Assembly (NCBI GenBank): GCA_963788195.1
Contig: CAWBGA010000013.1
Span: forward strand, 316,227 to 380,226
Reading direction: 5' to 3'
From: Nitrospirota bacterium
GTDB lineage: Bacteria > Nitrospirota > Nitrospiria > Nitrospirales > NS-4
DNA length: 64,000 bases
Below the pieces are notes generated by a model, which saw only the letters and a list, made by a program, of their open reading frames with translations, had not been told where the DNA came from and made no database searches. The position numbers were made by a program, and so were the translations under genes. Numbering within the stretch: position 1 is the first letter of the stretch; every line of letters starts with the position of its first letter. This document shows positions 5,646-62,400 of this stretch, one piece after another.

Positions 5646-6140
5646 TTAACCCTGCTTTGGGCTGCCTTCCCTCTGGTGCTGCTTGTCATGGTGCCGATGC
5701 GTGAGGCGCATCTTAATCAGCTTTCCCTGTTGTTCAGGTGTCAGAGTCTGCCGAAACAACTCTCGCCGCTGTTGCTTGAGCGTGGTGAGGGCATCAGTGG
5801 CCGCGTAATAGCGCTCTAGCGTCTGCTTCAACGTCGCGCTGTCCGCCTTCCCCTGAGCCTGTGCCTTAATAGTCGCTACCGCATCGTACCGCTGCTTGCG
5901 TAGAGGCTCAGCCTTTTGATTCAATTCATCTAAGCCCTGAGTCAGCTTTGTCCTGGTCTCTTGATCGAGCTGTAGCTTTTCAAACAAACGTGCCCGCTTC
6001 TTCTCGCCCCGATCACGAAGTTCTGGAGCCTTTCCCTGCTGGCCTTGAACCGCCGGTGATTCTGGAGTCGTGGGGTCAGCGGCAAAGGCGAACGCTGGCA
6101 TAAGCGAGACCGCCAAAAACACTGCTAATACTTTCCTCAT
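5646..6140 (-). CDS. Periplasmic CpxP/Spy/ZraP-like helical protein
   Basis: Signal peptide MRKVLAVFLAVSLMPAFAFA. LTxxQ-like motifs (LTQGLDELNQ, LTPEQQGKL). His-rich C-terminus HRHHDKQHQ. Confidence 0.5.
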   Translation of the reverse strand: MRKVLAVFLAVSLMPAFAFAADPTTPESPAVQGQQGKAPELRDRGEKKRARLFEKLQLDQETRTKLTQGLDELNQKAEPLRKQRYDAVATIKAQAQGKADSATLKQTLERYYAATDALTTLKQQRRELFRQTLTPEQQGKLIKMRLTHRHHDKQHQREGSPKQG

Positions 6141-6576: not shown

Positions 6577-7436
6577 GGTACCAGTTCATCGCCGACCACA
6601 CGCGCGAGCACCGGATCGGCGCGCTTTGCCGGGTGCTGCAGGTGTCGAGGAGTGGCTTCTACGGCTGGACGCGCCGACCCGAGAGTGGTCGCGCGCAGGC
6701 GAATCGGCAGTTGCTCGGGCGCATCCGCGCCCTGCATGCGCACGCCCGCGAGGCCTATGGCATTATCAAGACCTGGCGTGCGCTCAATGCCGAAGGGCTG
6801 CGCTGTGGGCACAACCGGGTCGCTCGCCTGCGCCGCGTGCACGGCATCGAGACCCGGCGGATGCGGCGCTTTCGCATGGCGTACGCCGCGCGCCAGAGCG
6901 CCCCGCCCGCTGCGAATCTGTTGGAGCGGGACTTCCACGTGGCCGCGCCGGATCGCGTCTGGGTCGCGGACATCAGCTTCATCCCCACGCGCGAGGGGTG
7001 GCTGTATCTGGCGGTGCTGCTGGATCTGTATTCCCGCCGGGTCGTGGGCTGGGCCATGCACGAGAAACAGAATCGCCAACTCGCCACCGAGGCGCTGGTG
7101 ATGGCCCTTGAACGCCGCCAGCCCAGCGCGGGGCTCATCCATCACAGCGATCAGGGTATGTTGTACGCCACGGCAAGCTACCGCCAGATCCTGACCGCGC
7201 ACGGCATGATCCCGAGTATGAGCCGCAAGGGCGACTGCTATGACAATGCGGTGGCTGAGAGTTTCTTCAGTGGCCTGAAGAATGAGTTGATTTGGCATCG
7301 TGACTTCAGAACGCGCGCTGAAGCACGAAGCGCCATCTTCGAATGGATCGAAGTCTTCTACAATCGACAGCGGCTGCATCAGACGCTCGAATACGTTAGT
7401 CCAGCCCGCTATGAGGCGCAGGCCGATGTTGCTTAA
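6573..7436 (+). CDS. IS3 transposase OrfB (DDE/rve integrase core)
   Basis: DDE context WVADISFI, HHSDQGMLY and CYDNAVAESFF. C-terminal YNRQRLHQTLEY. Overlaps the orfA stop. Confidence 0.9.
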   Translation: MRYQFIADHTREHRIGALCRVLQVSRSGFYGWTRRPESGRAQANRQLLGRIRALHAHAREAYGIIKTWRALNAEGLRCGHNRVARLRRVHGIETRRMRRFRMAYAARQSAPPAANLLERDFHVAAPDRVWVADISFIPTREGWLYLAVLLDLYSRRVVGWAMHEKQNRQLATEALVMALERRQPSAGLIHHSDQGMLYATASYRQILTAHGMIPSMSRKGDCYDNAVAESFFSGLKNELIWHRDFRTRAEARSAIFEWIEVFYNRQRLHQTLEYVSPARYEAQADVA

Positions 7437-31165: not shown

Positions 31166-31243
31166 GTCCCCATCGTCTAGTCTGGCCTAGGACGCGGCCC
31201 TTTCAAGGCTGCAACACGGGTTCAAATCCCGTTGGGGACACCA
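31166..31243 (+). tRNA. tRNA-Glu (anticodon UUC), CCA encoded
   Basis: Acceptor GTCCCCA/TGGGGAC. Anticodon stem CGGCC/GGCTG with loop CTTTCAA. T-arm CGGGTTCAAATCCCG. Discriminator A plus CCA. Very similar to the E. coli tRNA-Glu sequence as I recall it. Confidence 0.9.
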
Positions 31244-46366: not shown

Positions 46367-46932
46367 ATATCCGTCCGTTTCGCATCAATCTCAGCACGCA
46401 CCCCGGCCGTCATGTCGCGGTGATGCATGTCGGACTTGGCCTCCTGTCATTGCTGTTCATTGCTCTCATCGCCTGGGATTGGCGACAAGCTGAAATCATT
46501 CGTGAGCAGGGCCGAATGGTGGAGCAGGCGACCGCAAGGGTTCGGGAGCAAGACCAGCAGCTTCAGGCTCATGCCAAGGCGAACATGCTGGACGTGTCGG
46601 ACGCAGTTCTTCAGAGACTCCCGCGGGATGTAGCGTTCGCCAACCAATTGATCGCGAGGCGTGCCTTTTCTTGGACGCATTTTCTTCGTGACCTTGAAGC
46701 AGCGGTCCCTGAGGGGATCGCCATCCAGAACATCAAGGTGGACGTGAAAGCCTCCTCCATTGTCATGGGGGGTACCGCGAGCGGCTTAAAAGAGCTCACT
46801 GCCTTAATCATCGGCCTTGAAGACCATCCGGCATTTCAGCAGGCCGTACTCGGTCAACATCGAACCTTGGACAGCGGTTTCGTGGAATTCGGGTTGACAG
46901 TGCACTATAAGGCAACCACGCAGGGCGTTTGA
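46363..46932 (+). CDS. pilN: PilN-like pilus assembly protein
   Basis: N-terminal FRINL motif, a single TM (VGLGLLSLLFIALIAW), a coiled coil, then FSWTHFLRDLEAAVPEGIAIQNIKV. Confidence 0.75.
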   Translation: MNIRPFRINLSTHPGRHVAVMHVGLGLLSLLFIALIAWDWRQAEIIREQGRMVEQATARVREQDQQLQAHAKANMLDVSDAVLQRLPRDVAFANQLIARRAFSWTHFLRDLEAAVPEGIAIQNIKVDVKASSIVMGGTASGLKELTALIIGLEDHPAFQQAVLGQHRTLDSGFVEFGLTVHYKATTQGV

Positions 46933-47573
46933 TGCCGGACATGCGAGAAATAATGACATCGCCCTATGCGGGACTCTTTCCCTCAGGACTAGTGGCCATC
47001 TTATTCTGCGGCGCGTGGCTCGCAGTACATCTGTTGGTTCTGCAGCCCCTTCAGCAACGACAGGCGCAGCTCGATACCGACTGGGCGGTGGCCAGGCAGC
47101 ACCTGGCACAGCGTCTTGAGGCGAAGCAGACCATCAAGGACCTCGCTCAATTACTTGCCCTGCTGCCGTCCTCAAGAGATTTCTCGCAACTTCCCCTGGC
47201 CATGAGCGAGGAGGCTAAACGAAACAATGTGACGCTCGCAGGGTTGTCGTACACCATCGAGAAAAGTGACCAGATGCCTGCCGTGAAAGTGACTTTTAAG
47301 GGACCCGTTACCGGCCGTTACGAAGATCTTCGCCGATTCATTTACCACTTGGAATCCTCCGACCGCCTGCTGTTCATCGAAGATCTGGACGTCGGGCAGT
47401 CTGCGCTCAGCGAGAAAGACATAAAGCGCAGGGAGATGATGACTTTCACATTGCAAATCTCGACCTACATCCGGCAAACCGCTGGATCACTGCCTGCGGG
47501 AAAGGGTCGCGAGCAAAATGTAAGGAAGGCTTCTGCCGATCAGGAGCAGGCCGAGGTTATCCCATGGGCATAA
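46929..47573 (+). CDS. pilO: PilO-like pilus assembly protein
   Basis: TM (GLVAILFCGAWLAVHLL), a coiled coil, then VTFKGPVTGRYEDLRRFIYHLESSDRLLFIEDLDV. Overlaps the pilN stop. Confidence 0.7.
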   Translation: MMPDMREIMTSPYAGLFPSGLVAILFCGAWLAVHLLVLQPLQQRQAQLDTDWAVARQHLAQRLEAKQTIKDLAQLLALLPSSRDFSQLPLAMSEEAKRNNVTLAGLSYTIEKSDQMPAVKVTFKGPVTGRYEDLRRFIYHLESSDRLLFIEDLDVGQSALSEKDIKRREMMTFTLQISTYIRQTAGSLPAGKGREQNVRKASADQEQAEVIPWA

Positions 47574-47703
47574 AGACATGTCCTGGCACCGAGGGCCACG
47601 GGAAAAGGACGCGTCCCGACGCGTCCGGGGAGGGTGGGTGGAGTGGCGGGTGCCCGGGAAAAGAGGCTGTCTTGGCAGCCTCGGGGCTGGGCGGGTGTAG
47701 TAT

Positions 47704-48396
47704 ATGACCACGCGTGCCAAAGGGATGGCTCTTCTGCTTCTGCTCGTCATTTGGGCGGGCCTTGGGGCGTGGCTTCTCATGAACACGAATGAGCCGCAGC
47801 GGGTTCCTTTAAAATTCATCTCAGGTCAGTCCGGCGCGGAGGGAACCCGAGGACAGGGCAATGCCGCAAAGCGAATCGACCTCGCGCTTCTGATGGCTCA
47901 GCGGCAGAAGGCCGACAATTCCTTCATGGCGCCCAAGAATGTCTTTAGGCCCCTTAAGATGGAACGAGAGATCTCCGCCCCTGCGCCCCCTCCAAAAAAA
48001 CGTGAGATCCCACGGCAGGAGCTGTCGCCGGCGGTCCCCGGATACTCCGCCCGCTCCAGAGTCTCCAACCGTTTCTCCAACGCCTCCCCCGGAAGCGATG
48101 GCCATCCCGCCCGTCATTCCGGCCGCTCCACGCACTCCGGCTGCTCCGCCCGGGCCCAGCCTGAAGAGTTGGCAAGGCAGGCTGGACGCCAGGAACTGTC
48201 GCAATATCGCTATCTTGGCTATCTGACCCGGGCCGGGATGGATGAGGCATTCCTCTCCAGAGGGAAGGATCTGCATATCGTCAAGGCCGGCGAGACCATC
48301 AATCAACGTGTCCTCGTGAAAGCGATCACCCCGACCGGGGTCACTCTTCAAGAAACGGCTTCCCAGGTCGAACACACCGTCAAGCCTCTTCCATAA
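47704..48396 (+). CDS. PilP/GspC-like protein (TM + linker + C-terminal beta domain)
   Basis: TM MALLLLLVIWAGLGAWLL. C-terminal YRYLGYLTRAGMDEAFLSRGKDLHIVKAGETINQRVLVKAITPTGVTLQE. The middle segment looks out of frame (see findings). Confidence 0.5.
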   Translation: MTTRAKGMALLLLLVIWAGLGAWLLMNTNEPQRVPLKFISGQSGAEGTRGQGNAAKRIDLALLMAQRQKADNSFMAPKNVFRPLKMEREISAPAPPPKKREIPRQELSPAVPGYSARSRVSNRFSNASPGSDGHPARHSGRSTHSGCSARAQPEELARQAGRQELSQYRYLGYLTRAGMDEAFLSRGKDLHIVKAGETINQRVLVKAITPTGVTLQETASQVEHTVKPLP

Positions 48397-51510: not shown

Positions 51511-51776
51511 CGTCATCAGACGTAAACTAATATGTGACGCATGAAACGATAATCTCACGGCTGCGATCGGTGTCGATGGTCCCTCTGCAGCATCGACCCG
51601 GCCTCATCTTCAACCACCGCTCGGATCTGGCTATGACTCTTCATCAGTGACAAAAAATCCCCACGAGGAAACCGCCCCTAGTAGGTGTGCCTAATGCAAC
51701 TGAGTCTGTTATTCTCATCGGTATTGTTATTTTAACAGGCAAAAAGTACACTGACCGGTCAAACCAGGAATGTTCA

Positions 51777-53054
51777 ATGGCTGATTCGGACGGCGCCCAG
51801 GATGAGATAAGCCGCCTCAGGGACGAGTTGGAGGCAGTCCGCCGCCTGTGTCAGATACTGTTCCAAAAGACGAAGCTCGATGATCTCGTAGAAGCCGCGT
51901 TGCGGAGCGCCCTTCAGGAGGTGGACGCGGAAGCGGGCTCCGTGCTGCTCGCGGATGCAGATTCCAAGCAGCTCATCTTCCACTACTCCGTAGGAGCGAC
52001 GGTGCCGCGCGGAACGGCCATTCCGTGGGACAAGGGCATCGCCGGCAGCGTCTTTCAATCAGGAGAGCCGGCAATTATCGCCGACGTCAAGAAAACGAAA
52101 CAGCATTTCGGCGAGGTCAAGACCGGGTTCGTCACGCGTGACATGATCACGCTTCCGCTGAAACAATGGGAAGGCGATCCAATCGGAGTCATGAACGTTC
52201 TCAACAAGCGAAACGGGACCTTGGATACAAAGGATGTTCGTTTGCTCACGATCATTTCCGCGTTTACTGCAATCGCCATTCAACAGGCGCGCCTGTTCGA
52301 GGAAGCCAAGCTGGCAGAAGTGGTACACCGGCTCGGCGATCTGGGTCACGACTTAAAAAACCTCCTGACACCGATTGTGATGGGAAGCCAGATCCTCAAA
52401 GATGAGCTTGCGGAGGTCTTCGAAATGCTTGACGTCGTTGAGGACGGAAAAGCCGACAAGCATCGCGAAATTTGCGACGACGTGATCCGCATGCTCCAGG
52501 ACGGCGCTGAGCGGACGCGAGACCGTGTTCGAGAAATTGCCGACTGTGTCAAGGGGCTCAGCAGTTTGCCGAACTTTGCCTCCTGCAATGTCATGATGGT
52601 CGCGGACAGCGTCGTCAAGACCCTTCGGGTGGTGGCTGAGGAAAGAGGGGTCACGCTGAACGTGAAAGAAACTGCAACGTTGCCTCTAATCCTCGCAGAC
52701 GAACGCCGCCTGTTCAACGCTCTCTATAATTTGGTGAACAACGCGATCCCCGAAGTCTCTGCCGGCGGCTCAATCACGGTGAGTGGAAAATTGGAACCGG
52801 ACGGTAAACACATACACCTCACTGTGGCGGACACCGGTCGAGGCATGTCCTGTGAAGTCCGCGAAAGCCTGTTTTCCGCGCGAGCCATCAGCCGCAAGGC
52901 CGGCGGAACGGGGCTCGGCACGAAGATTGTGAAGGACGTCATCGACGCCCACGCAGGTACGATCTGGGTCGAAAGTAAGGAGGGCGCCGGCACCACCTTC
53001 CATGTGTGCCTTCCTATCTCCTGTCTTAGTGCCATTACACCCAACCCGCCCTGA
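51777..53054 (+). CDS. Cytoplasmic GAF-domain sensor histidine kinase (paralogue 1 of 3)
   Basis: GAF (AEAGSVLLADADSKQLIFHYSVG...GIAGSVFQSGEPAII...RDMITLPLKQWEGDPIGVMNVLNK). H-box-like GDLGHDLKNLL. HATPase GGTGLGTKIVKDVIDAHAGTIWVES. Confidence 0.85.
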   Translation: MADSDGAQDEISRLRDELEAVRRLCQILFQKTKLDDLVEAALRSALQEVDAEAGSVLLADADSKQLIFHYSVGATVPRGTAIPWDKGIAGSVFQSGEPAIIADVKKTKQHFGEVKTGFVTRDMITLPLKQWEGDPIGVMNVLNKRNGTLDTKDVRLLTIISAFTAIAIQQARLFEEAKLAEVVHRLGDLGHDLKNLLTPIVMGSQILKDELAEVFEMLDVVEDGKADKHREICDDVIRMLQDGAERTRDRVREIADCVKGLSSLPNFASCNVMMVADSVVKTLRVVAEERGVTLNVKETATLPLILADERRLFNALYNLVNNAIPEVSAGGSITVSGKLEPDGKHIHLTVADTGRGMSCEVRESLFSARAISRKAGGTGLGTKIVKDVIDAHAGTIWVESKEGAGTTFHVCLPISCLSAITPNPP

Positions 53055-53575
53055 AGCTTGCCAAGACAAGCTTCTTTGCCCCTGGCACCCAACCCGCCCT
53101 GAAGCTTGCCAAGACAAGCTTCTTTGCCCCTGGCACCCGGCACAGACCCGTTCCCCTGAAGCTCGCCAACCTGACAAGCTTCTTTGCCCCTGGCACCTGA
53201 CATCGCCCTGAGCTTCCCCGACGGGACAGACCTCTTTTCCCCTGAGCACCCCGAACCTGAACAGGCTCTTCTTCCCATGTTGCCCGAAATCTTATTTCAC
53301 CCACCCTTCCCCCGGCATGCCGGGGCATCGCCGACCGCGCCAAGACAGCGCTTTTTGCCCGTGGCACAATTCCTTTTCCCATTGCACCCACCCAGCCCTG
53401 AAATCTGCCGAGACAGATTCTTTTCGCCCATGGCACCCCAGGCTTTTGAAATCCCGCGGGACAGATTTCTTTTCCCCATTGCACCCCCCAGCCCTGAAAT
53501 CCTATTTCACCCACCCGCCCCGGCGCTGCCAAGACAGCGCCTTGTCCCGTGGGACAGATTTCTTTCCCCTTAGCG
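53038..53575 (+). repeat. Array A: head-to-tail array of CACCC-initiated units bearing a conserved-core hairpin
   Basis: Two identical 48-mers at 53038-53085 and 53086-53133, then diverged units of 60, 53, 51, 67, 20, 49, 48, 26 and 45 nt. Hairpins include GAAGCTTG-CCAAGA-CAAGCTTC (53053-53074), GAAATCTG-CCGAGA-CAGATTC (53400-53420) and GGCGCTG-CCAAGA-CAGCGCC (53522-53541). Confidence 0.9.
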
Positions 53576-53729
53576 CCGGCTGCGAAGGGGTCCGAATAAA
53601 TACACTTCGTATCTAAACAGATAGTCTGGTTCTTTTCTCGCCGCGGAATAGTCACAATTTATCAACCTCTTAACACCGGCCCACATTTTGCCTAGAACCA
53701 TCATAGGGACACCCGGCAAGGAGGCCACT

Positions 53730-55082
53730 ATGTACAATATGGAACCCGATATAGCAGGCAACTTGATGACGGGATTTGCAAGCATCGGAACAGGTGATAC
53801 TGAGGGAACCCACTCGACTGACGGATCTGCCCACAGCCTCTTCCAGCGGCTTCGCCAGCGCGAGCGTGAGTTGGACGCCGCACGCCTATTGAGTGAGGTA
53901 CTGTTTGAGCAAACCCGCCTTGACGAATTAGTCGAGCAAGCCCTACGGACAGCCCTTGATGTGGTCCAGGCTGAGGCCGGTTCCGTGCTGTTGGCCGATC
54001 CGGAGTTGCGCCAATTGGTCTTCCATCATTCGATTGGAAAGAGTCCCGTCCCTGCCGGCACAAGAATTTCGTGGGATTACGGTATTGCGGGGGCTGTCTT
54101 TCATTCGGCAAAGGCGGAAATTATCCCCGATGTCAAGCGTGACGGCCGTCATTTTCCCGGGATTGACTTGGAGGTGGGATATACGACGCGCGATATGATT
54201 ACGTTGCCTCTTAAGCGATGGGGAGGCAAACCCATCGGCGTGCTGAATGTCCTGAACAAGCGTAACCACCGCTTCACGGAGGATGATCTTGCCATCCTGA
54301 CTATCTTATCCGCGCTGACGTCAACCGCGATCGAGCAGACGCGGTTAGCGGAAGAGGCCAAGCGTGGGGAGATGTTATGTCTGCTGGGCGACATTGGTCA
54401 CGACATGAAAAACATGCTCGATCCAGTCCTCATGGGACTAGGGTTACTGCAAGACGGAATTGACGAGATGTGTGGCCTCTCGCAGCAAGAGCAGAAACAG
54501 GCGACGCGCGACCAATGCAACCATGTGATTGAGATCATTCGCGGTTCTTCCCGCAGGCTCCAGGAGCGCGTTCATCAGATGGCCGAGTGCGTGAAAGGGA
54601 TAAGCTCAGAACCCCAATTCGCTCCGTGCCGACTATCATCTATCGTGGAAGGGGTAATGACCACACTAGGTATGTTGGCCGCACAGAACAACATCGTCCT
54701 TCGCGCCGATGGCCTAGAGGACTTGCCGCCTATCATCGGCGACGAGCGCCGGCTGTACAATGCATTATATAACCTGGTTAATAATGCCATCCCGGAAGTT
54801 AAGAGCGGTGGTTCCATTACGGTGCGCGGGCGCGCAGCTGCAGCAAGAATCGTCCTTTCGGTCAGCGACACGGGAAGGGGCATGCCGCCGGAGGTTCGGG
54901 ACAGTCTTTTTACGGGTTGCGCCATCAGCCGTAAGCCCGGAGGCATTGGGCTGGGCACGAGAATCGTAAAGGATGCTGTGGAAGCGCATGGCGGTACGAT
55001 TACGGTCGAGAGCGCGATCGGGGTCGGCACCACGTTTGAAATCCGTTTACCGATCTTCCCTCCGCAATCGAAGACGCCGTAG
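53730..55082 (+). CDS. Cytoplasmic GAF-domain sensor histidine kinase (paralogue 2 of 3)
   Basis: Same architecture as paralogue 1 (AEAGSVLLADPELRQLVFHHSIG, GDIGHDMKNML, GGIGLGTRIVKDAVEAHGGTITVES). An AAGGAGG Shine-Dalgarno lies 6 nt before ATG 53730. Track start is TTG 53688. Confidence 0.85.
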   Translation: MYNMEPDIAGNLMTGFASIGTGDTEGTHSTDGSAHSLFQRLRQRERELDAARLLSEVLFEQTRLDELVEQALRTALDVVQAEAGSVLLADPELRQLVFHHSIGKSPVPAGTRISWDYGIAGAVFHSAKAEIIPDVKRDGRHFPGIDLEVGYTTRDMITLPLKRWGGKPIGVLNVLNKRNHRFTEDDLAILTILSALTSTAIEQTRLAEEAKRGEMLCLLGDIGHDMKNMLDPVLMGLGLLQDGIDEMCGLSQQEQKQATRDQCNHVIEIIRGSSRRLQERVHQMAECVKGISSEPQFAPCRLSSIVEGVMTTLGMLAAQNNIVLRADGLEDLPPIIGDERRLYNALYNLVNNAIPEVKSGGSITVRGRAAAARIVLSVSDTGRGMPPEVRDSLFTGCAISRKPGGIGLGTRIVKDAVEAHGGTITVESAIGVGTTFEIRLPIFPPQSKTP

Positions 55083-55169
55083 AATATCATCCTTCCTCTG
55101 CGATCGGCTCCGAGAGTCGGTCGTCTTCGTCCTTCCCGCCCACGGACTTCTGTGCTATGTTCTGCCTCG

Positions 55170-55197
55170 CTGATCTTCCGATCAGACTTCTTTTTTT
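55170..55197 (+). terminator. Candidate Rho-independent terminator after the second GAF kinase
   Basis: CTGATC-TTCC-GATCAG stem-loop (55170-55185), a 5-nt spacer, then a T7 run at 55191-55197. Confidence 0.45.
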
Positions 55198-55295
55198 AGT
55201 TTCTCAGACTCGATTTCCACTTCTACGGAGGGGGAAATATCAAAGACACCAACGAACGTCGTGCTGTTAACGAAGTCCGACTCGGATCGCTTGGG

Positions 55296-57524
55296 TTGTA
55301 TTTCCTCGCAGCGATCGTCGGCGCGAGCATAGTATCTATGCTGGTTGATCCGACGCAACACTTCCTGGGATGGCTGCTTTCCGTCTCAGTGATCATAGCG
55401 TTACTGCTCGGGGTCGGCGAATACGTTAGGGCGAGGTTCCTGAAGCGCGAGGTTAAAGAGGTCGGCGCGTCAGAACTTTCCCCTCACGCGCACAACCTGG
55501 AGGCAGACGAGCCTTTCCGGGCTGTCGCCGAAACGGCCAGCGACGGCATCATATCGGCCGACGAGAATGGAGATATCATCTACTGGAATCCCGCTGCCGA
55601 GAAGATCTTTGGATACTCGATGGCACAGGCGCGTGGACGATCGCTTACGCTTCTTATGCCGGAACGACTGCGCAAAGCTCATCAGGAGGGAATGAAGCGA
55701 GTGGTCGCGCAGGGCGAGTCCCGGCTGCTCGGAAAAGTGGTTGAATTAACCGGACTAAAGAAAGACGGGAGGGAGTTCCCCTTAGAGCTTTCGCTTTCAA
55801 CCTGGACGACATCAGAACGTCGAGGCTTCACGGGGATCGTTCGCGATATCACCCTCCGCAAACAACTCGAACGACGCATGACCGCTGAGCATGCGGTGAC
55901 TCGATTTTTGGCTGAGTCTCCCACGCTTGGGGAAGTGGCCCCGAAAATCCTACAGGCGATCTGCGAAAGCCTGGGATGGGAAATGGGCGCTTTTTGGCGT
56001 GTCGACCAGGAGGGCGATGTTATCCGCTGCAGCGATGTCTGGCATTCTCCGTCGGTCAACGTTGCGAAGTTTACAGAATTCAGCAAGCAGACCGTCTTTA
56101 CTCGGGGACTCGGACTGCCCGGTCGGGTCTGGGCCAGTGGGGAGCCATCCTGGATCACCGACGTACTGCAGGATGCCAACTTCCCACGTGCGCCGATTGC
56201 CGCGAGAGAAGGCCTTCACGGAGCGCTCTGTTTCCCGATTCGAAGGGCAGGCTTGGTGCTGGGGGTCATGGAGTTCTTCAGTCGAAAAATCCAGGAGCCA
56301 GACGACGGCCTACTACAGATGCTCGCCGCCATTGGTAGCCAGATCGGTCAATTTATGGAGCGCAAGCGGGCAGAGGAGCAGATCAGCTCTCTCAAAGAAT
56401 ATGTCCAAATGATCCTCGATAGCGTGCCGGATCCCATTGTCATTCTCAATCAGGATGCGCAAGTTCAATACATCAATAGAGCCTCGTACAAGGTGTTTAA
56501 CCTGTATCCATCTGATGTGAAACACCGTCCGCTGTTCGACCTGCTCAAGGTCGATGTGTCCACCCGGGAGGAATTGCGCAGCGAACTCGGAAGCTATGCA
56601 AAAAGCAGGCAGCAGCAACCTGTCCTTGCTGCGGATTATGGGACGGACGTGCCGCTTCGAGACCCGCTTGCTCCTCAAAAAAACATGAGCGAGAGGCATC
56701 ACCGCAAGGAGATCAAGTTTGGACGGCGCACATATCATTACACCTGTTTTCCTGTCGAGGGGCATTCGGATGAGGGGAAATTGACGGGCCTTGTGCTTCG
56801 GGACACCACAGAAGAGAGCAGCCTCCAGGACCAACTCATTCAGGCTGAGAAACTGGCGGGGATTGCCCTGCTTACCTCCGGTCTCGGCCACGAGCTGAAT
56901 AATCCCCTCTATAGCGTGTTAGGACTAAGCGAGGCGATTATCGATGAACATGATGCCGCCATCATGAAGGAACATGCCAAAGTTATCGTAGAGGAAGCCA
57001 GGCGCATGGGCCGAATCATAAAGGATCTCACCGGCCGGAGCGCAATTGAAGCGAGCGATCTGCGGGTGGAGGTGGACGTCAACGAGCAGTTGAATTATGC
57101 GTTAGGCTTGACATTGCCCGTGCCACCAGACAAAAACCTCCAAGTGGAAAAAAGGCTTGCTGCGACGCGCAAAATTTGGGCAAATCCTTTCGAGGTACGT
57201 CAAGTGTTTGTGAATATTATTAGCAATGCCATTCAGGCCATGAAGGGGAATGGGACGCTGGAGCTTGCGAGCGACATTAATGATGGAGACGGTATGGTGA
57301 GAATCATAATTCGGGACTCAGGGCCCGGCATTGCCGCTCCGCATGTGTCTAAAATTTTCGATCCCTTCTTTACGACAAAGAAGCAGGGAGAAGGGACAGG
57401 TCTTGGACTCACCATTGCCCATCGGATAGTCACAAAGCACGCTGGACAGATTCAGGTTGACACCCATGAACCGGAGGGGACGACATTTACCATAACGTTC
57501 CCGCTGATGGACACCACGACGTAG
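55296..57524 (+). CDS. Membrane-anchored PAS-GAF-PAS sensor histidine kinase
   Basis: Two N-terminal hydrophobic helices. PAS (DGIISADENGDIIYWNPAAEKIFGY). GAF (WEMGAFWRVDQEGDVIRC...GLPGRVWASGEPSWI). HisKA LGHELNNPL. HATPase GTGLGLTIAHRIVTKHAGQIQV. TTG start as in the track. Confidence 0.88.
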   Translation: MYFLAAIVGASIVSMLVDPTQHFLGWLLSVSVIIALLLGVGEYVRARFLKREVKEVGASELSPHAHNLEADEPFRAVAETASDGIISADENGDIIYWNPAAEKIFGYSMAQARGRSLTLLMPERLRKAHQEGMKRVVAQGESRLLGKVVELTGLKKDGREFPLELSLSTWTTSERRGFTGIVRDITLRKQLERRMTAEHAVTRFLAESPTLGEVAPKILQAICESLGWEMGAFWRVDQEGDVIRCSDVWHSPSVNVAKFTEFSKQTVFTRGLGLPGRVWASGEPSWITDVLQDANFPRAPIAAREGLHGALCFPIRRAGLVLGVMEFFSRKIQEPDDGLLQMLAAIGSQIGQFMERKRAEEQISSLKEYVQMILDSVPDPIVILNQDAQVQYINRASYKVFNLYPSDVKHRPLFDLLKVDVSTREELRSELGSYAKSRQQQPVLAADYGTDVPLRDPLAPQKNMSERHHRKEIKFGRRTYHYTCFPVEGHSDEGKLTGLVLRDTTEESSLQDQLIQAEKLAGIALLTSGLGHELNNPLYSVLGLSEAIIDEHDAAIMKEHAKVIVEEARRMGRIIKDLTGRSAIEASDLRVEVDVNEQLNYALGLTLPVPPDKNLQVEKRLAATRKIWANPFEVRQVFVNIISNAIQAMKGNGTLELASDINDGDGMVRIIIRDSGPGIAAPHVSKIFDPFFTTKKQGEGTGLGLTIAHRIVTKHAGQIQVDTHEPEGTTFTITFPLMDTTT

Positions 57525-57533
57525 TGTGAGAAT

Positions 57534-58790
57534 CTACGGGGAGAGGACAGGAGGACGCAGCGGAAGGCGAAGATGAAATGACGTCCCGACGCCTTCTACG
57601 CTGTCGACTGAGATCTGACCACCGTGCGCGTCCACCACGTCTTTTATGATCTTTGTGCCGAGGCCCGTCCCGCCGGGTTTCCGACTGATGGCGCGACCCG
57701 TAAAGAGGCTGTCGCGGATCTCGGGCGGCATGCCCCGCCCGGTATCGATCACTGAAATGACAATAAAGTCCGTTTCCGTCGCGATACGACCGCGGATCGT
57801 GATAGAGCCGCCGGGGGACACCTCTGAAATGGCGTTGTTGATCAAGTTATACAGGGCGTTGTACAGACGCTGTTCATCGGCCAGGATTGCGGGCAAGGCG
57901 TCAAGTCCTTCGCAGCGCAACGAGATGCTTTTTTCTTCCGCTACCATGCGCAGGGTCTCCAAGACGTTCTGTGACACCGTCATGAGACGACATTTCTCGA
58001 AGCGTGGAGGACAACTCAGCCCCTTTACGCAGTCACCTATTTCCTTGACGCGATCCTGAATACGCCTTGCAGCGTTCCGCAGCATTCCGAGGACCATGTA
58101 GCATCGTTCCGATGCTTTCTCATCGTGGGGAGTCGGCACCCGGCTCAGAAGCGAATCCAGCTCTTCATGAAGGATCCCGGCTCCCATAATGACAGGGGCC
58201 AACATATTCCTTACATCGTGACCGATATCGCCGAGCAGCCGCACGACTTCAGCGAGCTTCGCGTCTTCATAGAGGCGGGCCTGCTCAATGGCGGTCGCCG
58301 TCAAGGATGAAATGATCGTTAGGATGGAAAGGTCGTCTTTATCAAGCTTTCCTTTGCGTTTATTCAGTACGGTAAGGACGCCAATAGGCTCGCCCTCCCA
58401 TCGTTTCAGCGGAAGCGTGATCATGTCGCGGGTCGAGTAGCCGGTGAGATCATCTATGCCGGCGAAATGACGGGTGTCGGCCTTCACATTTTCAATGACG
58501 GCGGGTTCCCCCGAATGGAACACAGCCCCCACAATGCCGTAATCCCAGGAGATTGCCGTGCCCGGCGCCACCGGTCTTACTCCGACAGAATATTGAAAGA
58601 TTAATTGTCGGGATTCTGAATTGGCAAGGAGCAGGGATCCGGCCTCCGCCCCCACTACCTCCAATGCCGTGTGTAAAGCGTTTTCGATGAGTTTATCAAC
58701 ACGTGTGTGCTGAAACAGGGCTTCGCTGATCCGTCGGGCAGCCTCTAGTTCACGCTCCTTCTGAAATAGTCGTTGAGCCTGGGTACTCAC
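57534..58790 (-). CDS. Cytoplasmic GAF-domain sensor histidine kinase (paralogue 3 of 3)
   Basis: AEAGSLLLANSESRQLIFQYSVG, GDIGHDVRNML, GGTGLGTKIIKDVVDAHGGQISVDS. GTG start. Confidence 0.85.
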   Translation of the reverse strand: MSTQAQRLFQKERELEAARRISEALFQHTRVDKLIENALHTALEVVGAEAGSLLLANSESRQLIFQYSVGVRPVAPGTAISWDYGIVGAVFHSGEPAVIENVKADTRHFAGIDDLTGYSTRDMITLPLKRWEGEPIGVLTVLNKRKGKLDKDDLSILTIISSLTATAIEQARLYEDAKLAEVVRLLGDIGHDVRNMLAPVIMGAGILHEELDSLLSRVPTPHDEKASERCYMVLGMLRNAARRIQDRVKEIGDCVKGLSCPPRFEKCRLMTVSQNVLETLRMVAEEKSISLRCEGLDALPAILADEQRLYNALYNLINNAISEVSPGGSITIRGRIATETDFIVISVIDTGRGMPPEIRDSLFTGRAISRKPGGTGLGTKIIKDVVDAHGGQISVDSVEGVGTSFHLRLPLRPPVLSP

Positions 58791-58833
58791 CCTTTTCGTT
58801 TCACGACGCAGTCCATAGAGACTATTTCAGTCC

Positions 58834-59400
58834 CACCCGGCTGTGTTTGGGAGGGACAGTTTCTTCATACGGAGCCCGAGCTCTCCCACGAGCCAAACGG
58901 GTATACTAGTCTAGACGTTTTTCAATTGAATAGGGAACATTTTATCCTTGCAAAAACCCTTAGTTGGGAGCACCGTAGTGAAGCTCGTCCTATGGCTGCT
59001 TTGGTTATATCGGAAGGTACCACCCAGTCCTATTGCACCCGCCCGCCAAGCCGAGCTTGCTCGACCACTACACCCGGCCCACCCCAGAACTCGCCATTGC
59101 ACCCTCCCCAGCCTGGAGACCCCTTGTACAGGAAGGCAAAGGGTGCCTCGGACAAACTCCTTTGCCCTATTACACCCGCCCGCCCTGGAGTTTCATTTCA
59201 CCCGCCCACCCCAAGCCTGCCAAGACAGGCTTTTGTCCCGTGGGACAAACTCCTTTGCCCCTGGACGAGTTCGTCTCGCCCATGGGCCTGATGATTATTT
59301 TGAGGCCGCCGGGGATAGTTTCTCTGCTCTTTGTTTTGCCTTTTGCACCCGCCCACCCCGGCGCTGCCAGGACAGCGCCTTGTCCCGTGGCACCCGCCGC
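58834..59400 (+). repeat. Array B: second array of the same repeat family, same orientation
   Basis: A degenerate unit at 58834-58869, then a dense run 59021-59400. It includes 45-nt units 59199-59243 (hairpin AAGCCTG-CCAAGA-CAGGCTT, 59213-59232) and 59346-59390 (GGCGCTG-CCAGGA-CAGCGCC, 59360-59379). Confidence 0.85.
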
Positions 59401-59486
59401 GCCGCGGGCCTGCCGGGTCTGAGCCGTGGCCCCATGAGACAATCCAAAAACACAGGCGGCCTTCGATCTAAGAGGGGAGCCGAAGC

Positions 59487-62400
59487 GTGCTGGTGAGCCG
59501 TAAAACCTTCCTCGGAAACACGCTCCATTTTCTCTCAAGCTTTGGGAGCAATGGCGGGGGACCATCGTACGCAGGTGACGATTTACCGCCTCTGAGGTCG
59601 GAACTTTTCAGCGCGGACCAAATGGAGCAGCACGGCAAGACCCTGGCAGGCCAGCACACATTGAGTACGCAGAGCGTACGTGACGAACTGCTGCCGCGAT
59701 TGGCCGACAACGAACGGGTTCTGCTTCGAGTGCACAACCTTCTGGCAGAGGCCGTCAAGGCGAATCGCCGGATTACGCCAGCAGGAGAATGGCTACTGGA
59801 TAATTTCTATCTGATTGAAGAGCAGATCCGGATGGCTAAAAGACATCTGCCTAAGGTGTATAGCCGGGAACTTCCCCGTCTGCTCAATGGGCCGTCGGCC
59901 GGGCTTCCCCGCGTGTATGACATTGCCCTTGAGACAATCTCCCATGGCGACGGAAGAGTCGATCCAGAGAGTCTCGGCAGTGTCGTGGCCGCGTACCAGA
60001 CCGTCAGCCTCCTGAAGTTAGGCGAATTGTGGGCTATCCCTATCATGCTACGTCTCGCCCTGATCGAGAATCTTCGCCGCGCGGGCGCTCGCATTGCCGC
60101 AAACAGAATCGACCGAAATCTTGCCGACCACTGGGCGGACCAGATGTTGGAAGTCGCGGCGAAGGATGCGAAGAGTTTGATCCTCGTGATTGCAGACATG
60201 GCCCGTTCGAACCCCCCCATGGGCAGTTCGTTTGTCGCGGAGTTTGCCCGTCGGTTACAAGGACAGAGCCCGGCTTTATCCTTGCCGCTAACGTGGATCG
60301 AGCAGCAATTGTCCGAGTCTGGATTGACGATTGATCTGCTGGTGCAGTCGGAAAATCAACAACAGGCCGCGGACCAGGTCTCCATCAGTAACAGCATCGG
60401 CAGTCTCCGATTTTTGGGAGCGATGGATTGGCGCGAGTTTGTCGAGACCATGAGCGTGGTCGAACGTACCTTGCGTCAGGATATGGGCGGCGTCTACGGC
60501 AAGATGGATTTTGCCACGCGAGATCAATACCGTCATGTCGTAGAGAAGATTGCCAAAAACGCTCGGTTATCCGAAGCCGAGGTCGCGCACAAGGCGATTC
60601 AACTGGCGAACGACGCCGTTTTAAAAGGTGGGCGTGCCAACCGTGCGGCCCACGTCGGGTTCTATCTAATTGATAAGGGTTTGGAACAGCTTGAACTGGC
60701 GCTGCAACCCCGGCGCCCTAGGGTCGATGTCCTTCGCAGTATAGCCGCGCGCTCTCCCCTTTCTATTTATCTAGGCGGCATCCTGCTTCTGACTGCGATC
60801 GTTGCCGGGTGGTTTGTCGCAGAGGCGCATGCCGGAGGGGTATCCGGCTGGTTGCTCCTGCTGGTCGGCGTCGTGTCCGGTGTATGCGCCAGTCATCTAG
60901 CCGTCGCGTTGGTGAATTGGGTGGCAACGTTAGTCGTGACACCGGATCACTTGCCACGAATGAATTTATCACAAGGGATTCCGGCTGAGTTACGCACGCT
61001 CGTCGTGGTCCCGACGATGCTCCTGAGCGCCCAGGATATCGAGCACCAGGTAGAGGCGCTTGAAGTCAGATTCCTGGCGAATCGGGACGAAAATCTTCAC
61101 TTCGGCCTGCTGACGGATTTTCGAGATGCGGACGAGGAGACGCTCCCCGAGGACGAACAGCTTTTGCAGTTGGCCCAAAACAGAATTGAAGAGCTGAACG
61201 AAAAGTATAAAGGAGCAAAGGCGGACACGTTTTTTCTTTTTCATCGACCGCGGCGCTGGAACGCTCAAGAGGAGATGTGGATGGGGTACGAGCGTAAGCG
61301 CGGAAAGCTGGGTGATTTAAATTCGTTTTTGCGAGGCGGCTCTCAAGACCGTTTTGCCCGTATCGTCGGCAAGACGGACGTGTTATCGAACGTCAAATAT
61401 GTCATCACCCTTGATACGGATACGCAGCTGCCACGCGATGCCGCCCAGCAGTTCGTGGGCGCGATGGCCCATCCTCTGAATCGTCCGGAATATGACGAGG
61501 TCCAGCAGCGCGTGACTGAGGGATACGGCATCCTGCAGCCACGCGTGGCCGTAAGCCTCCCGAGCAAGGACCGGTCTCGGTATGCGCGGCTATGCGGAAG
61601 CGAGCCGGGCGTCGATCCTTATACCCGTGAGGTTTCGGACGTCTATCAGGACGTGTTCCGTGAAGGCTCGTTCATCGGCAAGGGGATTTACGACGTTGAT
61701 GCATTCGAGCGGGCCCTCAAAGCACGCTTTCCAGAGAATCGCATTCTCAGCCATGATCTGCTGGAAGGGTGTTATGCGCGGGCGGGGCTCTTAAGCGATG
61801 TGCAGTTGTATGAGGAGTATCCGTCGCGTTACAGCACCGACATCAACCGCCGCCGTCGTTGGATTCATGGAGACTGGCAGCTTGCGCCGTGGTTGCTTCC
61901 GCGAATCCCGGCAGTTGGGGGGCGGAGCCAGCGAAACTTACTCTCGGGCCTATCTCAATGGAAGATCTTTGATAATCTGAGGCGCAGTCTTGTGCCTCCC
62001 GCCTTGACCCTTCTGTTGATCTTAGCGTGGACCTTCTTGTCCCCGGTTTGGTTTTGGACCCTGGCGGTGCTCGGCATCCTGCTGATGCCTTCTCTGATAG
62101 CCTCTATTCTGGACATACTTCGGAAGCCCCAGGATGTCCTCATGAGTCACCATATGGCTACAGCGCTCAGTTCGGCCGGCCGTCACGGTGCTCAGGCGCT
62201 GTTCATGCTGGTGTGTCTGCCCTATGAGGCGGCCGTCAGCCTGAATGCGATTGTGCGTACTGCCTGGCGCCTACTGATCTCACAGAAACGACTTCTCGAA
62301 TGGACTTTGTCGGGTCAGAAAGAACGCGATAGCCGCACCGACATCATCGCTTTTGGCCGGATGATGTCGGTCGCGCCGCTGACCGCCTCCGCTGTGGCCA

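Follow-up and report, generated by a model that had tools for sequence, protein, structure and literature searches.

In a 64,000-nucleotide stretch of DNA from a Nitrospirota bacterium (the window), the intergenic region between the third of a row of GAF kinase genes and a divergently oriented ndvB-like glucan synthase gene carries short units that begin with CACCC and continue into a hairpin. A preliminary description of this region regarded the units as a second copy of an array located at 53038-53573 and suggested a 5' regulatory or leader role for both. The locus thus raises the question of whether such repeats serve the genes next to them or whether they are elements in their own right. 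We consider it likely, with a probability of roughly 0.6, that they represent a non-coding hairpin module similar to repetitive extragenic palindromes (REPs) and bacterial interspersed mosaic elements (BIMEs), which would multiply by insertion, preferentially into hairpin loops beside a CCC motif. The units form a family that is specific to the Nitrospira lineage (order Nitrospirales). Their stems covary, copies nest within one another, filled and empty sites differ by 45 nt, and the content of the arrays turns over quickly. Overall, the arrays look like a genomic parasite or structural repeat of the REP type or of the type of MITEs (miniature inverted-repeat transposable elements), and not like a dedicated control region of ndvB.

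The initial observation is real and statistically solid. The CACCC-headed hairpin units of 53038-53573 (array A) are found again, as members of the same family and in the same orientation, at 59036-59433 (array B). The segments that had been paired with each other are indeed alike, i.e., 59173-59198 with 53482-53507 and 59199-59243 with 53508-53552, and both are followed by the GACA(A/G)A..TTT.CCC tails (59244-59264 and 53553-53573). Across the entire 111 nt, 59150-59260 and 53459-53569 share 76% identity. The head pattern CACCCNCCCNCCC, allowing up to one mismatch, matched the window 11 times compared to 1.56 matches expected, and 11 matches were reached in 0 of 100 shuffles. A covariance model built from ten units of the window placed all units in three clusters, each of them intergenic, including a third one in the opposite orientation (array C). 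Array B had been thought to begin at 58834; the array is present, but starts at 59036 only, and 58834-59035 is ordinary intergenic DNA that includes a conserved block (see below). The three clusters and the parts of array B are as follows; loci from other genomes and metagenomes carry L numbers.

53038..53573, plus strand: array A, same family, from the sequence and model matches
47562..47697, minus strand: array C, two complete units (47653-47697 and 47596-47640) and fragments, between two plus-strand genes
59036..59433, plus strand: array B as a whole, 398 nt of nested and tandem CACCC hairpin units with two other small modules, from the sequence
59036..59070, plus strand: unit head CACCCGCCCGCC running into the left portion of module M3 (AGCTTGCTCGACC), a composite that is also present in L018 and L098
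59071..59095, plus strand: 5' half of the outermost unit with head CACCCGGCCCACCCC, left arm GAACTCG and the first loop bases CC; intact in L018
59096..59264, plus strand: 169-nt insert in the loop of the outermost unit, comprising two second-level units, from flank-by-flank alignment; L018 has only AAG here
59096..59172, plus strand: second-level unit a with head CACCCTCCCCAGCC, arms GGAG / AAACTCC and tail TTTGCCCTATTA; the H2 hairpin lies in its loop
59119..59145, plus strand: H2 hairpin module (ACCCCTTG..CAAAGGGT), a second module family
59173..59264, plus strand: second-level unit b with head CACCCGCCCGCCC, arms GGAGTTT / AAACTCC and tail TTTGCCCCTGG, split by the inner unit
59194..59243, plus strand: innermost unit with a 5-nt leader CATTT, head CACCCGCCCACCCC, stem AAGCCTG/CAGGCTT and loop CCAAGA; 62.8 bits
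59265..59285, plus strand: 3' half of the outermost unit, i.e., A, right arm CGAGTTC and tail GTCTCGCCCATGG, from flank alignment
59286..59318, plus strand: right part of M3, i.e., the hairpin GGCCTGATGATTATTTTGAGGCC followed by GCCGGGGATAG; joined to the left part in L098
59346..59390, plus strand: solitary complete unit with stem GGCGCTG/CAGCGCC and loop CCAGGA; 57.4 bits
59391..59433, plus strand: degenerate last unit (CACCCGCCGCGCC...GCCGTGGCCCC), from sequence alone and with no model match

Array B is a three-level nest and not a row of units. The model matched it at 59199-59244 and 59346-59390 and, weakly, at 59100-59171. The intact counterpart of the outermost unit is found in L018, a related metagenome bin, as CACCCAGCCCACCCCCGAACTCG-CCAAGA-CGAGTTCGTTTCTCCCATGG; the window has matching flanks on both sides and 169 nt inside the loop, and 59036-59095 aligns to L018 with 55/60 identities. 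What had been listed as a 26-nt unit, a 45-nt unit and a tail is present in sequence, but does not amount to three separate units: the '26-nt unit' and the 'tail' together form second-level unit b (CACCCGCCCGCCC-T-GGAGTTT ... GACA-AACTCC-TTTGCCCCTGG), which holds the inner unit in its loop. In the DNA fold, GGAGTTT pairs with AAACTCC around the inner hairpin. This innermost unit is the best model match of the window, with a hairpin free energy of -6.4 kcal/mol; its final CCCGTGG may be part of the loop of the outer unit.

The end of array A is built in the same way, with an outer unit that has an inner unit in its loop. Here, an 'empty' unit (53434-53481, loop CCGCGGGA) directly adjoins a 'filled' copy of the same subfamily (53482-53573, outer arms GAAATC/GATTTC, inner unit 53508-53552), so that the former is the empty form of the latter. 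The two additional modules also occur at other loci. H2 (ACCCCTTGC..GCAAGGGGT) occupies the same loop position of outer units in L022, L049, L196 and L197, and shows a compensatory change of its own in L196 (ACCCGTTGC/GCAACGGGT). M3 (AGCTTGCTCGACC ... GGCCT-loop-AGGCC-GCCGGGGATAG) is uninterrupted in L098 (about 2850-2900) and is split by a hairpin unit in L018 and in the window (59048-59070 and 59286-59318), where the interrupting unit is the outermost one of array B. Across the family, 46 of the 146 units with full context reside inside a split outer unit.

Filled and empty sites could be compared in Nitrospiraceae, where a palindromic MITE with the terminal inverted repeat (TIR) GCAGGATGCTSAAAAAG is abundant. 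This MITE measures about 125 nt without units and accommodates them just inside its TIRs and in its central loop (125-300 bp). Among 93 bounded copies, size classes near 125, 170, 215 and 260 nt correspond to 0, 1, 2 and 3 units. At both TIR-proximal sites the difference between empty and filled is exactly 45 nt: 11 nt (n=37) versus 56 nt on one side, and 9 nt (n=36) versus 54 nt on the other. The preliminary description had considered that the stems might turn out to belong to a longer mobile-element terminus. This comes close to the finding in Nitrospiraceae, where the unit lies inside the MITE near its TIRs; the MITE itself is absent from the window. Examples of MITE copies among L001-L114 are L075 3799-4062 and L052 3759-3885. 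In L132 (1801-1925), a unit-free copy is located upstream of an ndvB homolog, 25 nt from its start; the product of this homolog is 71% identical to the window protein.

Judging from these sequence comparisons, the inserted piece fits best as a T-rich leader, head, hairpin and TT end, with the downstream CCC..G already present in the target. This reading also accounts for the loops of the CCCGTGGGA type that are left when the inner piece is removed from the doublets of the window; loops of the same type occur at 53434-53481 and 47596-47640 and in one unit of L197, all of them uninterrupted. Inserts adjoin a CCC..G motif on their 3' side in three kinds of site. The ends of the unit, i.e., leader/CACCC head and TT..CCC tail, are not inverted repeats, and no duplicated flank indicating a target-site duplication was found in the filled/empty comparisons. 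We also considered an alternative phase, in which a conserved core is flanked by inverted arms and CCAAGA forms the junction. It was rejected, as solitary units in unique DNA (e.g., L048 and 59346-59390) show the order CACCC...hairpin...CCC.

To define the family, the covariance model was applied to 741 kb of related loci and identified 154 units, only 2 of which fall inside called open reading frames (ORFs). The unit is about 43-48 nt long. After CACCC-N-CCC-N-CCC comes a 7-8 bp stem around the loop CCAAGA, and its return arm leads into TT(T/G)(N)CCC(N)(N)GG. The CACCC head is invariant, the loop CC(A/G)(A/G)GA nearly so, and the C-tracts contain 85-99% C per column, while the single bases between the tracts vary freely (G/A/T). 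Conservation of loop and C-tracts also holds in 49 copies that lie outside the selection of the scan pattern (see below). All four C-tracts are present in 99 of 136 distinct copies, and the fourth is the least conserved part of the unit.

In the stem, conservation concerns pairing and not sequence. Across the 136 distinct copies, 87.9% of the stem cells are paired, compared to 65.5% after shuffling and 25-40% when the partners are slid against each other. Both sides are changed in 236 stem cells versus 77 in the shuffled set, and the covariation score is 0.538 versus 0.184 (shuffled) and at most 0.074 (partners slid). Seven pairs of the modelled stem are real and the outermost modelled pair is not; 75 distinct combinations of stem and loop occur. 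This strong family-wide covariation bears out the structural constraint on the hairpin that had been proposed earlier. Fold energies alone are unremarkable (z-scores of -0.7 to -2.6 for units and -1.2 to -1.4 for arrays), and the case for structure therefore rests on covariation. From the compensatory changes one can infer that the repeat itself has to keep a structure, but not that a gene-specific riboregulator exists.

The example from which covariation was first suspected needs a different interpretation. Units 59199-59243 and 59346-59390 do have identical flanks and differ at 9/45 positions, i.e., in four stem pairs on both arms (AAGCCTG/CAGGCTT versus GGCGCTG/CAGCGCC) and in one loop base. 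The compensatory differences are real, but they did not arise between these two copies. The closest relative of 59346-59390 is 53508-53552 in array A (42/45 identical; 89% identity over 55 nt for the two as a family) and not 59199-59243, and both stems were found again in other genomes. The stem differences thus mark old subfamilies and not changes between neighboring copies.

The pattern of conservation also bears on a structural function. Arrays could have been adopted by the host as structural or topological punctuation. The C-tracts, with the hairpin placed in the long loop, would fold into a G-quadruplex (G-rich strand) or an i-motif (C-rich strand), or else a conserved nucleoid or topology protein would bind the fixed head and loop; BIMEs, for comparison, are bound by gyrase and integration host factor (IHF). 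The conserved parts are exactly C3-N-C3-N-C3 with a further CCC after the hairpin and free spacer bases, four tracts are found in the majority of copies given above, the core is conserved across the whole order, and the invariant loop suggests sequence-specific recognition. In addition, the positions of arrays are retained in relatives. The fourth C-tract, however, which is less conserved than any other part, seems to come from the target, and insertion polymorphism and rapid turnover fit selfish spread equally well. Recognition by a mobilising enzyme and by a host protein are not distinguishable from these data. We regard a primarily structural role, in either its folding or its protein-site variant, as rather doubtful.

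The range of the family was determined by an exact-pattern scan (CACCCNCCCNCCCN{7,10}CCAAGACA) of one genome per species, 596 Gb in total. At least 114 loci matched; about 108 of those listed belong to Nitrospira, Nitrospiraceae or Nitrospirales, including N. moscoviensis. By a rough estimate, chance matches in 596 Gb are expected in the tens. The few loci from outside Nitrospirales among those listed look like chance matches, with one that resembles a mis-binned contig. The latter, L040, is labelled Acidobacteriota and probably represents mis-binned Nitrospira DNA; it contains at 7177-7274 a terminal repeat of the Nitrospiraceae MITE together with a nested unit of typical form. A scan of viral contigs for the unit gave 0 matches. 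In our literature search, we found no paper that describes a REP, a MITE or a quadruplex repeat from Nitrospira. N. moscoviensis is listed by a REP-prediction paper in a summary table only, and Nitrospira is not mentioned in the supplements to a Y1-transposase survey.

We then turned to close relatives to ask how the arrays behave at orthologous loci. Orthologs of the third GAF kinase were found on three contigs (L196, L197 and L198), with 88-90% protein identity and 84-87% DNA identity to the window. Homologs of the kinase bear Nitrospirota names, and the window thus most likely derives from a genome of the Nitrospirales. L197 and L198 also carry the divergent ndvB gene, and the L196 contig ends in the array before reaching it. 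In all three, the array starts at the same position, after ...CCAGTCCT(A/G)TT. Its content is different: L197 and L198 have about 190 nt of other units compared to 398 nt in the window, and L196 has different units as well, with the contig end falling inside the array. At the position of array A, the array of L196 comprises about 290 nt versus 536 nt in the window, again with different units. The position of the arrays is thus kept, while their content turns over much faster than the flanks.

Other loci carry no arrays. A fourth relative, L195 (86% identity, three GAF kinases), has no unit and lacks the PAS kinase and both arrays. Likewise, 80 ndvB-homolog loci obtained by a metagenome scan with the NdvB N-terminus (63-74% identity) have no unit and no adjacent GAF kinase; not being syntenic with the GAF kinases, they are uninformative on the conservation of array position. 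Conservation of the array position in relatives, which had been named as a test, holds for L196, L197 and L198, and no array is found in L195.

Upstream of array B, the segment 58906-59035 between the start of the third GAF kinase gene and the array is about 90% identical in L196 and L197, compared to 84-87% for the flanking genes. It probably serves the two divergent genes, kinase and ndvB, as a common promoter or regulatory region; a simple promoter scan found no sigma-70 consensus. Array B occupies the space between this block of about 130 nt and the 40 nt that precede the ndvB start and are likewise conserved. A promoter of ndvB within the block would mean that the array is transcribed in a long 5' untranslated region (UTR). 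This arrangement is compatible with a cis-regulatory RNA leader. Array B would then belong to the long 5' UTR of ndvB, array A would form the leader of the second GAF kinase gene, and the hairpins would serve as attenuators or binding sites for RNA-binding proteins. In line with it, arrays A and B lie upstream of plus-strand genes, in the sense orientation, and end 54-160 nt before their start codons, relatives retain an array at the array B position, and the stems covary.

The wider context does not agree with such a role. In the window, one cluster is sense between co-directional genes, one is sense in a divergent region, and one, array C, is antisense between co-directional genes. Array C is flanked by a PilO/T2SS-M-like gene at 46929-47573 and, on the other side, by an ORF that has no annotation (47704-48396). 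Among 118 units with two callable neighbors, a set from which the two units inside ORFs are excluded, 26 are sense-tandem, 45 antisense-tandem, 31 convergent and 16 divergent; neither the excess of antisense over sense copies nor that of convergent over divergent contexts suits a leader. Unit content is not conserved between relatives, and neither the 80 ndvB-homolog loci nor the GAF kinase genes of L195 have units. Mismatches in the stems (13 G.T versus 22 A.C) show none of the wobble bias that a strand-specific RNA with its G.U pairs would lead one to expect, and the RNA fold of the whole array has a z-score of only -1.2. Neither a terminator in the units nor a promoter of the sigma-70 type was predicted by simple scans. 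Rfam, searched at gathering thresholds over the whole window and permissively over 58700-59600, returned a tRNA elsewhere (the gene at 31166-31240, the sole match at gathering threshold) and a chance-level NrsZ fragment (E = 0.51). A sigma-54 reading of the CTGGCAC junctions was rejected by eye because the -12 element is missing. Likewise, a structured cis-regulatory RNA class was rejected on the grounds of mixed context, non-conserved content, the lack of units at ndvB-homolog loci (0/80) and the lack of an Rfam family. The 5' regulatory or leader role put forward in the preliminary description is thus not supported as a property of the family, and at this locus what remains of it is positional compatibility; we consider it unlikely.

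The same orientation counts speak to a function at 3' ends, where the units could act as mRNA-stabilising hairpins or weak terminators, as some REPs do, with array A serving the first GAF kinase gene. Convergent contexts exceed divergent ones (31 versus 16), a T-rich stretch follows the hairpin, and the TGA of the first kinase ORF (51687-53054) lies inside the first unit both in the window and in L196. The T-run is short, however, and followed by C's, the terminator scan found none in the units, antisense copies are commoner than sense copies between co-directional genes, and array B stands between two gene starts and so has no upstream gene to terminate. A general 3'-end role is accordingly improbable. 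As to the kinase ORF itself, it enters the first unit of array A and stops in ...GCCCTGAAG; its last few codons and the stop are supplied by the repeat, as they are in L196 (about 5860-5880, minus strand).

A coding function can be practically discounted. ORFs of 129-206 aa do run through the arrays (58948-59496, 53184-53573 and 53035-53655), and one unit period is 48 nt, which would suit a repetitive peptide or protein. These ORFs have no Pfam match and are expected from stop-poor, C-rich repeats. The unit lengths of 45, 48, 49, 53, 60 and 67 nt break the frame, and orthologous arrays differ by large rearrangements with length differences that are not multiples of three.

These alternatives are partly compatible with a mobile, REP/BIME-like module, as a mobile repeat can gain local effects. 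For the module itself we propose the following mechanism. It would insert, often into the single-stranded loop of an existing hairpin including that of its own copies, at a point directly on the 5' side of a CCC..GG/GA motif. Duplication in tandem on a local scale and recombination among units would contribute, and Russian-doll and tandem intergenic arrays would result; a share of local duplication is suggested by two identical tandem copies of 48 nt each in array A (53038-53085 and 53086-53133, together 53038-53133). The stem would have to pair but would be free in sequence, which would account for compensatory differences from one subfamily to the next. A protein presumably reads the fixed head and loop. 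By analogy to REPs with their REP-associated tyrosine transposases (RAYTs) and to IS200/IS605 insertion sequences, the hairpin might be recognised as single-stranded DNA by a trans-acting enzyme of the Y1/HUH type. Effects on the ndvB or GAF kinase genes would then be a by-product of the presence of the module.

Several points weigh against this proposal. A tblastn search of the window and the Nitrospira loci (about 0.8 Mb around repeats), using approximate sequences of three Y1 transposases (IS608 TnpA, IS200 TnpA and E. coli RAYT), found no transposase or RAYT-like gene. Genes between inverted units are housekeeping genes according to Pfam, e.g., for urease subunits and an FGE-sulfatase-domain protein. 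Judged by sequence, the ends of the element can be placed only approximately and no target-site duplication is seen; the filled/empty pairs are paralogous or cross-species and not alleles, and deletion could explain individual cases. Imprecise ends and possible deletions are the main weakness of the insertion reading. Moreover, a core that is conserved across an entire order is not what one usually finds in a repeat that is selfish only; it hints at a function for the host or at recognition by a conserved protein, and the conserved array position in close relatives is compatible with a local role.

A bolder version of the insertion reading is conceivable, to which we attach tentative weight only. 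The 45-nt unit would be a previously undescribed, minimal type of mobile DNA, consisting of a single hairpin with a C-tract head and no inverted ends or target duplication, inserting into single-stranded hairpin loops that include its own, and kept recognisable across Nitrospirales by a dedicated enzyme or host protein. In addition, C-tracts and hairpin may constitute a switch of the quadruplex or i-motif type, of which the host makes use near genes such as ndvB.

How does the element compare to known systems? Most similar in its working are REPs, BIMEs and the REP-derived REPINs of Enterobacteria and Pseudomonas, which are moved by RAYT (TnpA-REP), a Y1 HUH transposase. Shared features are an imperfect palindrome that is short and adjoined by a conserved flank, extragenic location, presence in multiple copies, mosaics with other small motifs, subfamilies with covarying stems, lineage specificity and a frequent location near gene ends. 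With a 7-bp stem and a 6-nt loop in an intergenic 45-nt unit of many copies, the element corresponds to a REP palindrome. It differs by the 5' flank CACCC-N-CCC-N-CCC and the lack of a GTAG tetranucleotide, by an invariant loop, and by units residing in each other's loops. Whereas REPs alternate as inverted pairs, the units of each array in the window are tandem or nested in one orientation, and the only inverted pairs are those that belong to the Nitrospiraceae MITE. The unit core is conserved across an order and not merely a species or genus, and the approximate tblastn queries found no RAYT gene in the window or the Nitrospira loci.

With miniature elements of the IS200/IS605 type (palindrome-associated transposable elements, PATEs; IS608/ISDra2), the unit shares the lack of TIRs and of a detectable target duplication, a hairpin as the likely recognition feature, insertion beside a short specific motif and a preference for sites expected to be single-stranded, i.e., hairpin loops. 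In contrast to PATEs with their separate left-end and right-end hairpins, it has one hairpin in a 45-nt module, and no TnpA was found with the approximate tblastn queries and no TnpB nearby. MITEs (Correia, Nezha, RUP) and pneumococcal BOX elements are likewise small, non-autonomous, intergenic and nested in one another, and BOX A-Bn-C is modular with a variable number of the middle module. A direct link to MITEs is that the Nitrospiraceae unit is carried in a true TIR-bounded MITE; the unit itself is much shorter, has neither TIR nor target-site duplication, and forms arrays on its own in the window. Quadruplex-forming dispersed repeats are known from reports in Xanthomonas and Nostoc. They too are dispersed and intergenic with a run of G/C tracts as the conserved part, unlike the present unit with its three tracts, a hairpin and a weaker fourth tract, for which folding is only predicted. 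A CRISPR array was rejected, since no spacers separate the units, which adjoin or nest, and stems vary from repeat to repeat. Taken together, the element is a small hairpin repeat of the REP/MITE world that is unusual in its self-nesting in loops, direct orientation, C-tract head and order-wide conservation.

In soils, waters and wastewater plants, Nitrospira are the main oxidisers of nitrite as well as the complete oxidisers of ammonia, and most of their genomes are available as fragmentary metagenome bins. Pile-ups of a lineage-wide intergenic repeat help to explain contig breaks in such assemblies: metagenome contigs end in or next to arrays in L196 (1-110), L018 and L022, which suggests that the repeat breaks short-read assemblies of Nitrospira. 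For binning, the repeat offers a sequence marker with which bins can be checked, as illustrated by the Acidobacteriota-labelled contig that carries it. With regard to the plasticity of genomes, the arrays indicate where structure changes rapidly, in hot spots beside signalling and envelope-glucan genes. Finally, empty, filled and doubly filled sites can all be compared, which makes the family useful as a compact natural system for the copying or insertion of very small hairpin DNAs.

Two minor observations concern the surroundings of the repeats. Arrays A and B bracket a row of four paralogous GAF/PAS histidine kinase genes (51687-58790), and the C-terminal parts of the second and third of these contain a 215-nt inverted repeat with 70% identity (54849-55063 versus 57550-57764). 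On the minus strand of L100, at about 1780-1930, the frame of an alpha/beta-hydrolase-like gene apparently contains two units nested as a doublet, with GSSFGGLVALMAAAKWP... preceding the doublet.

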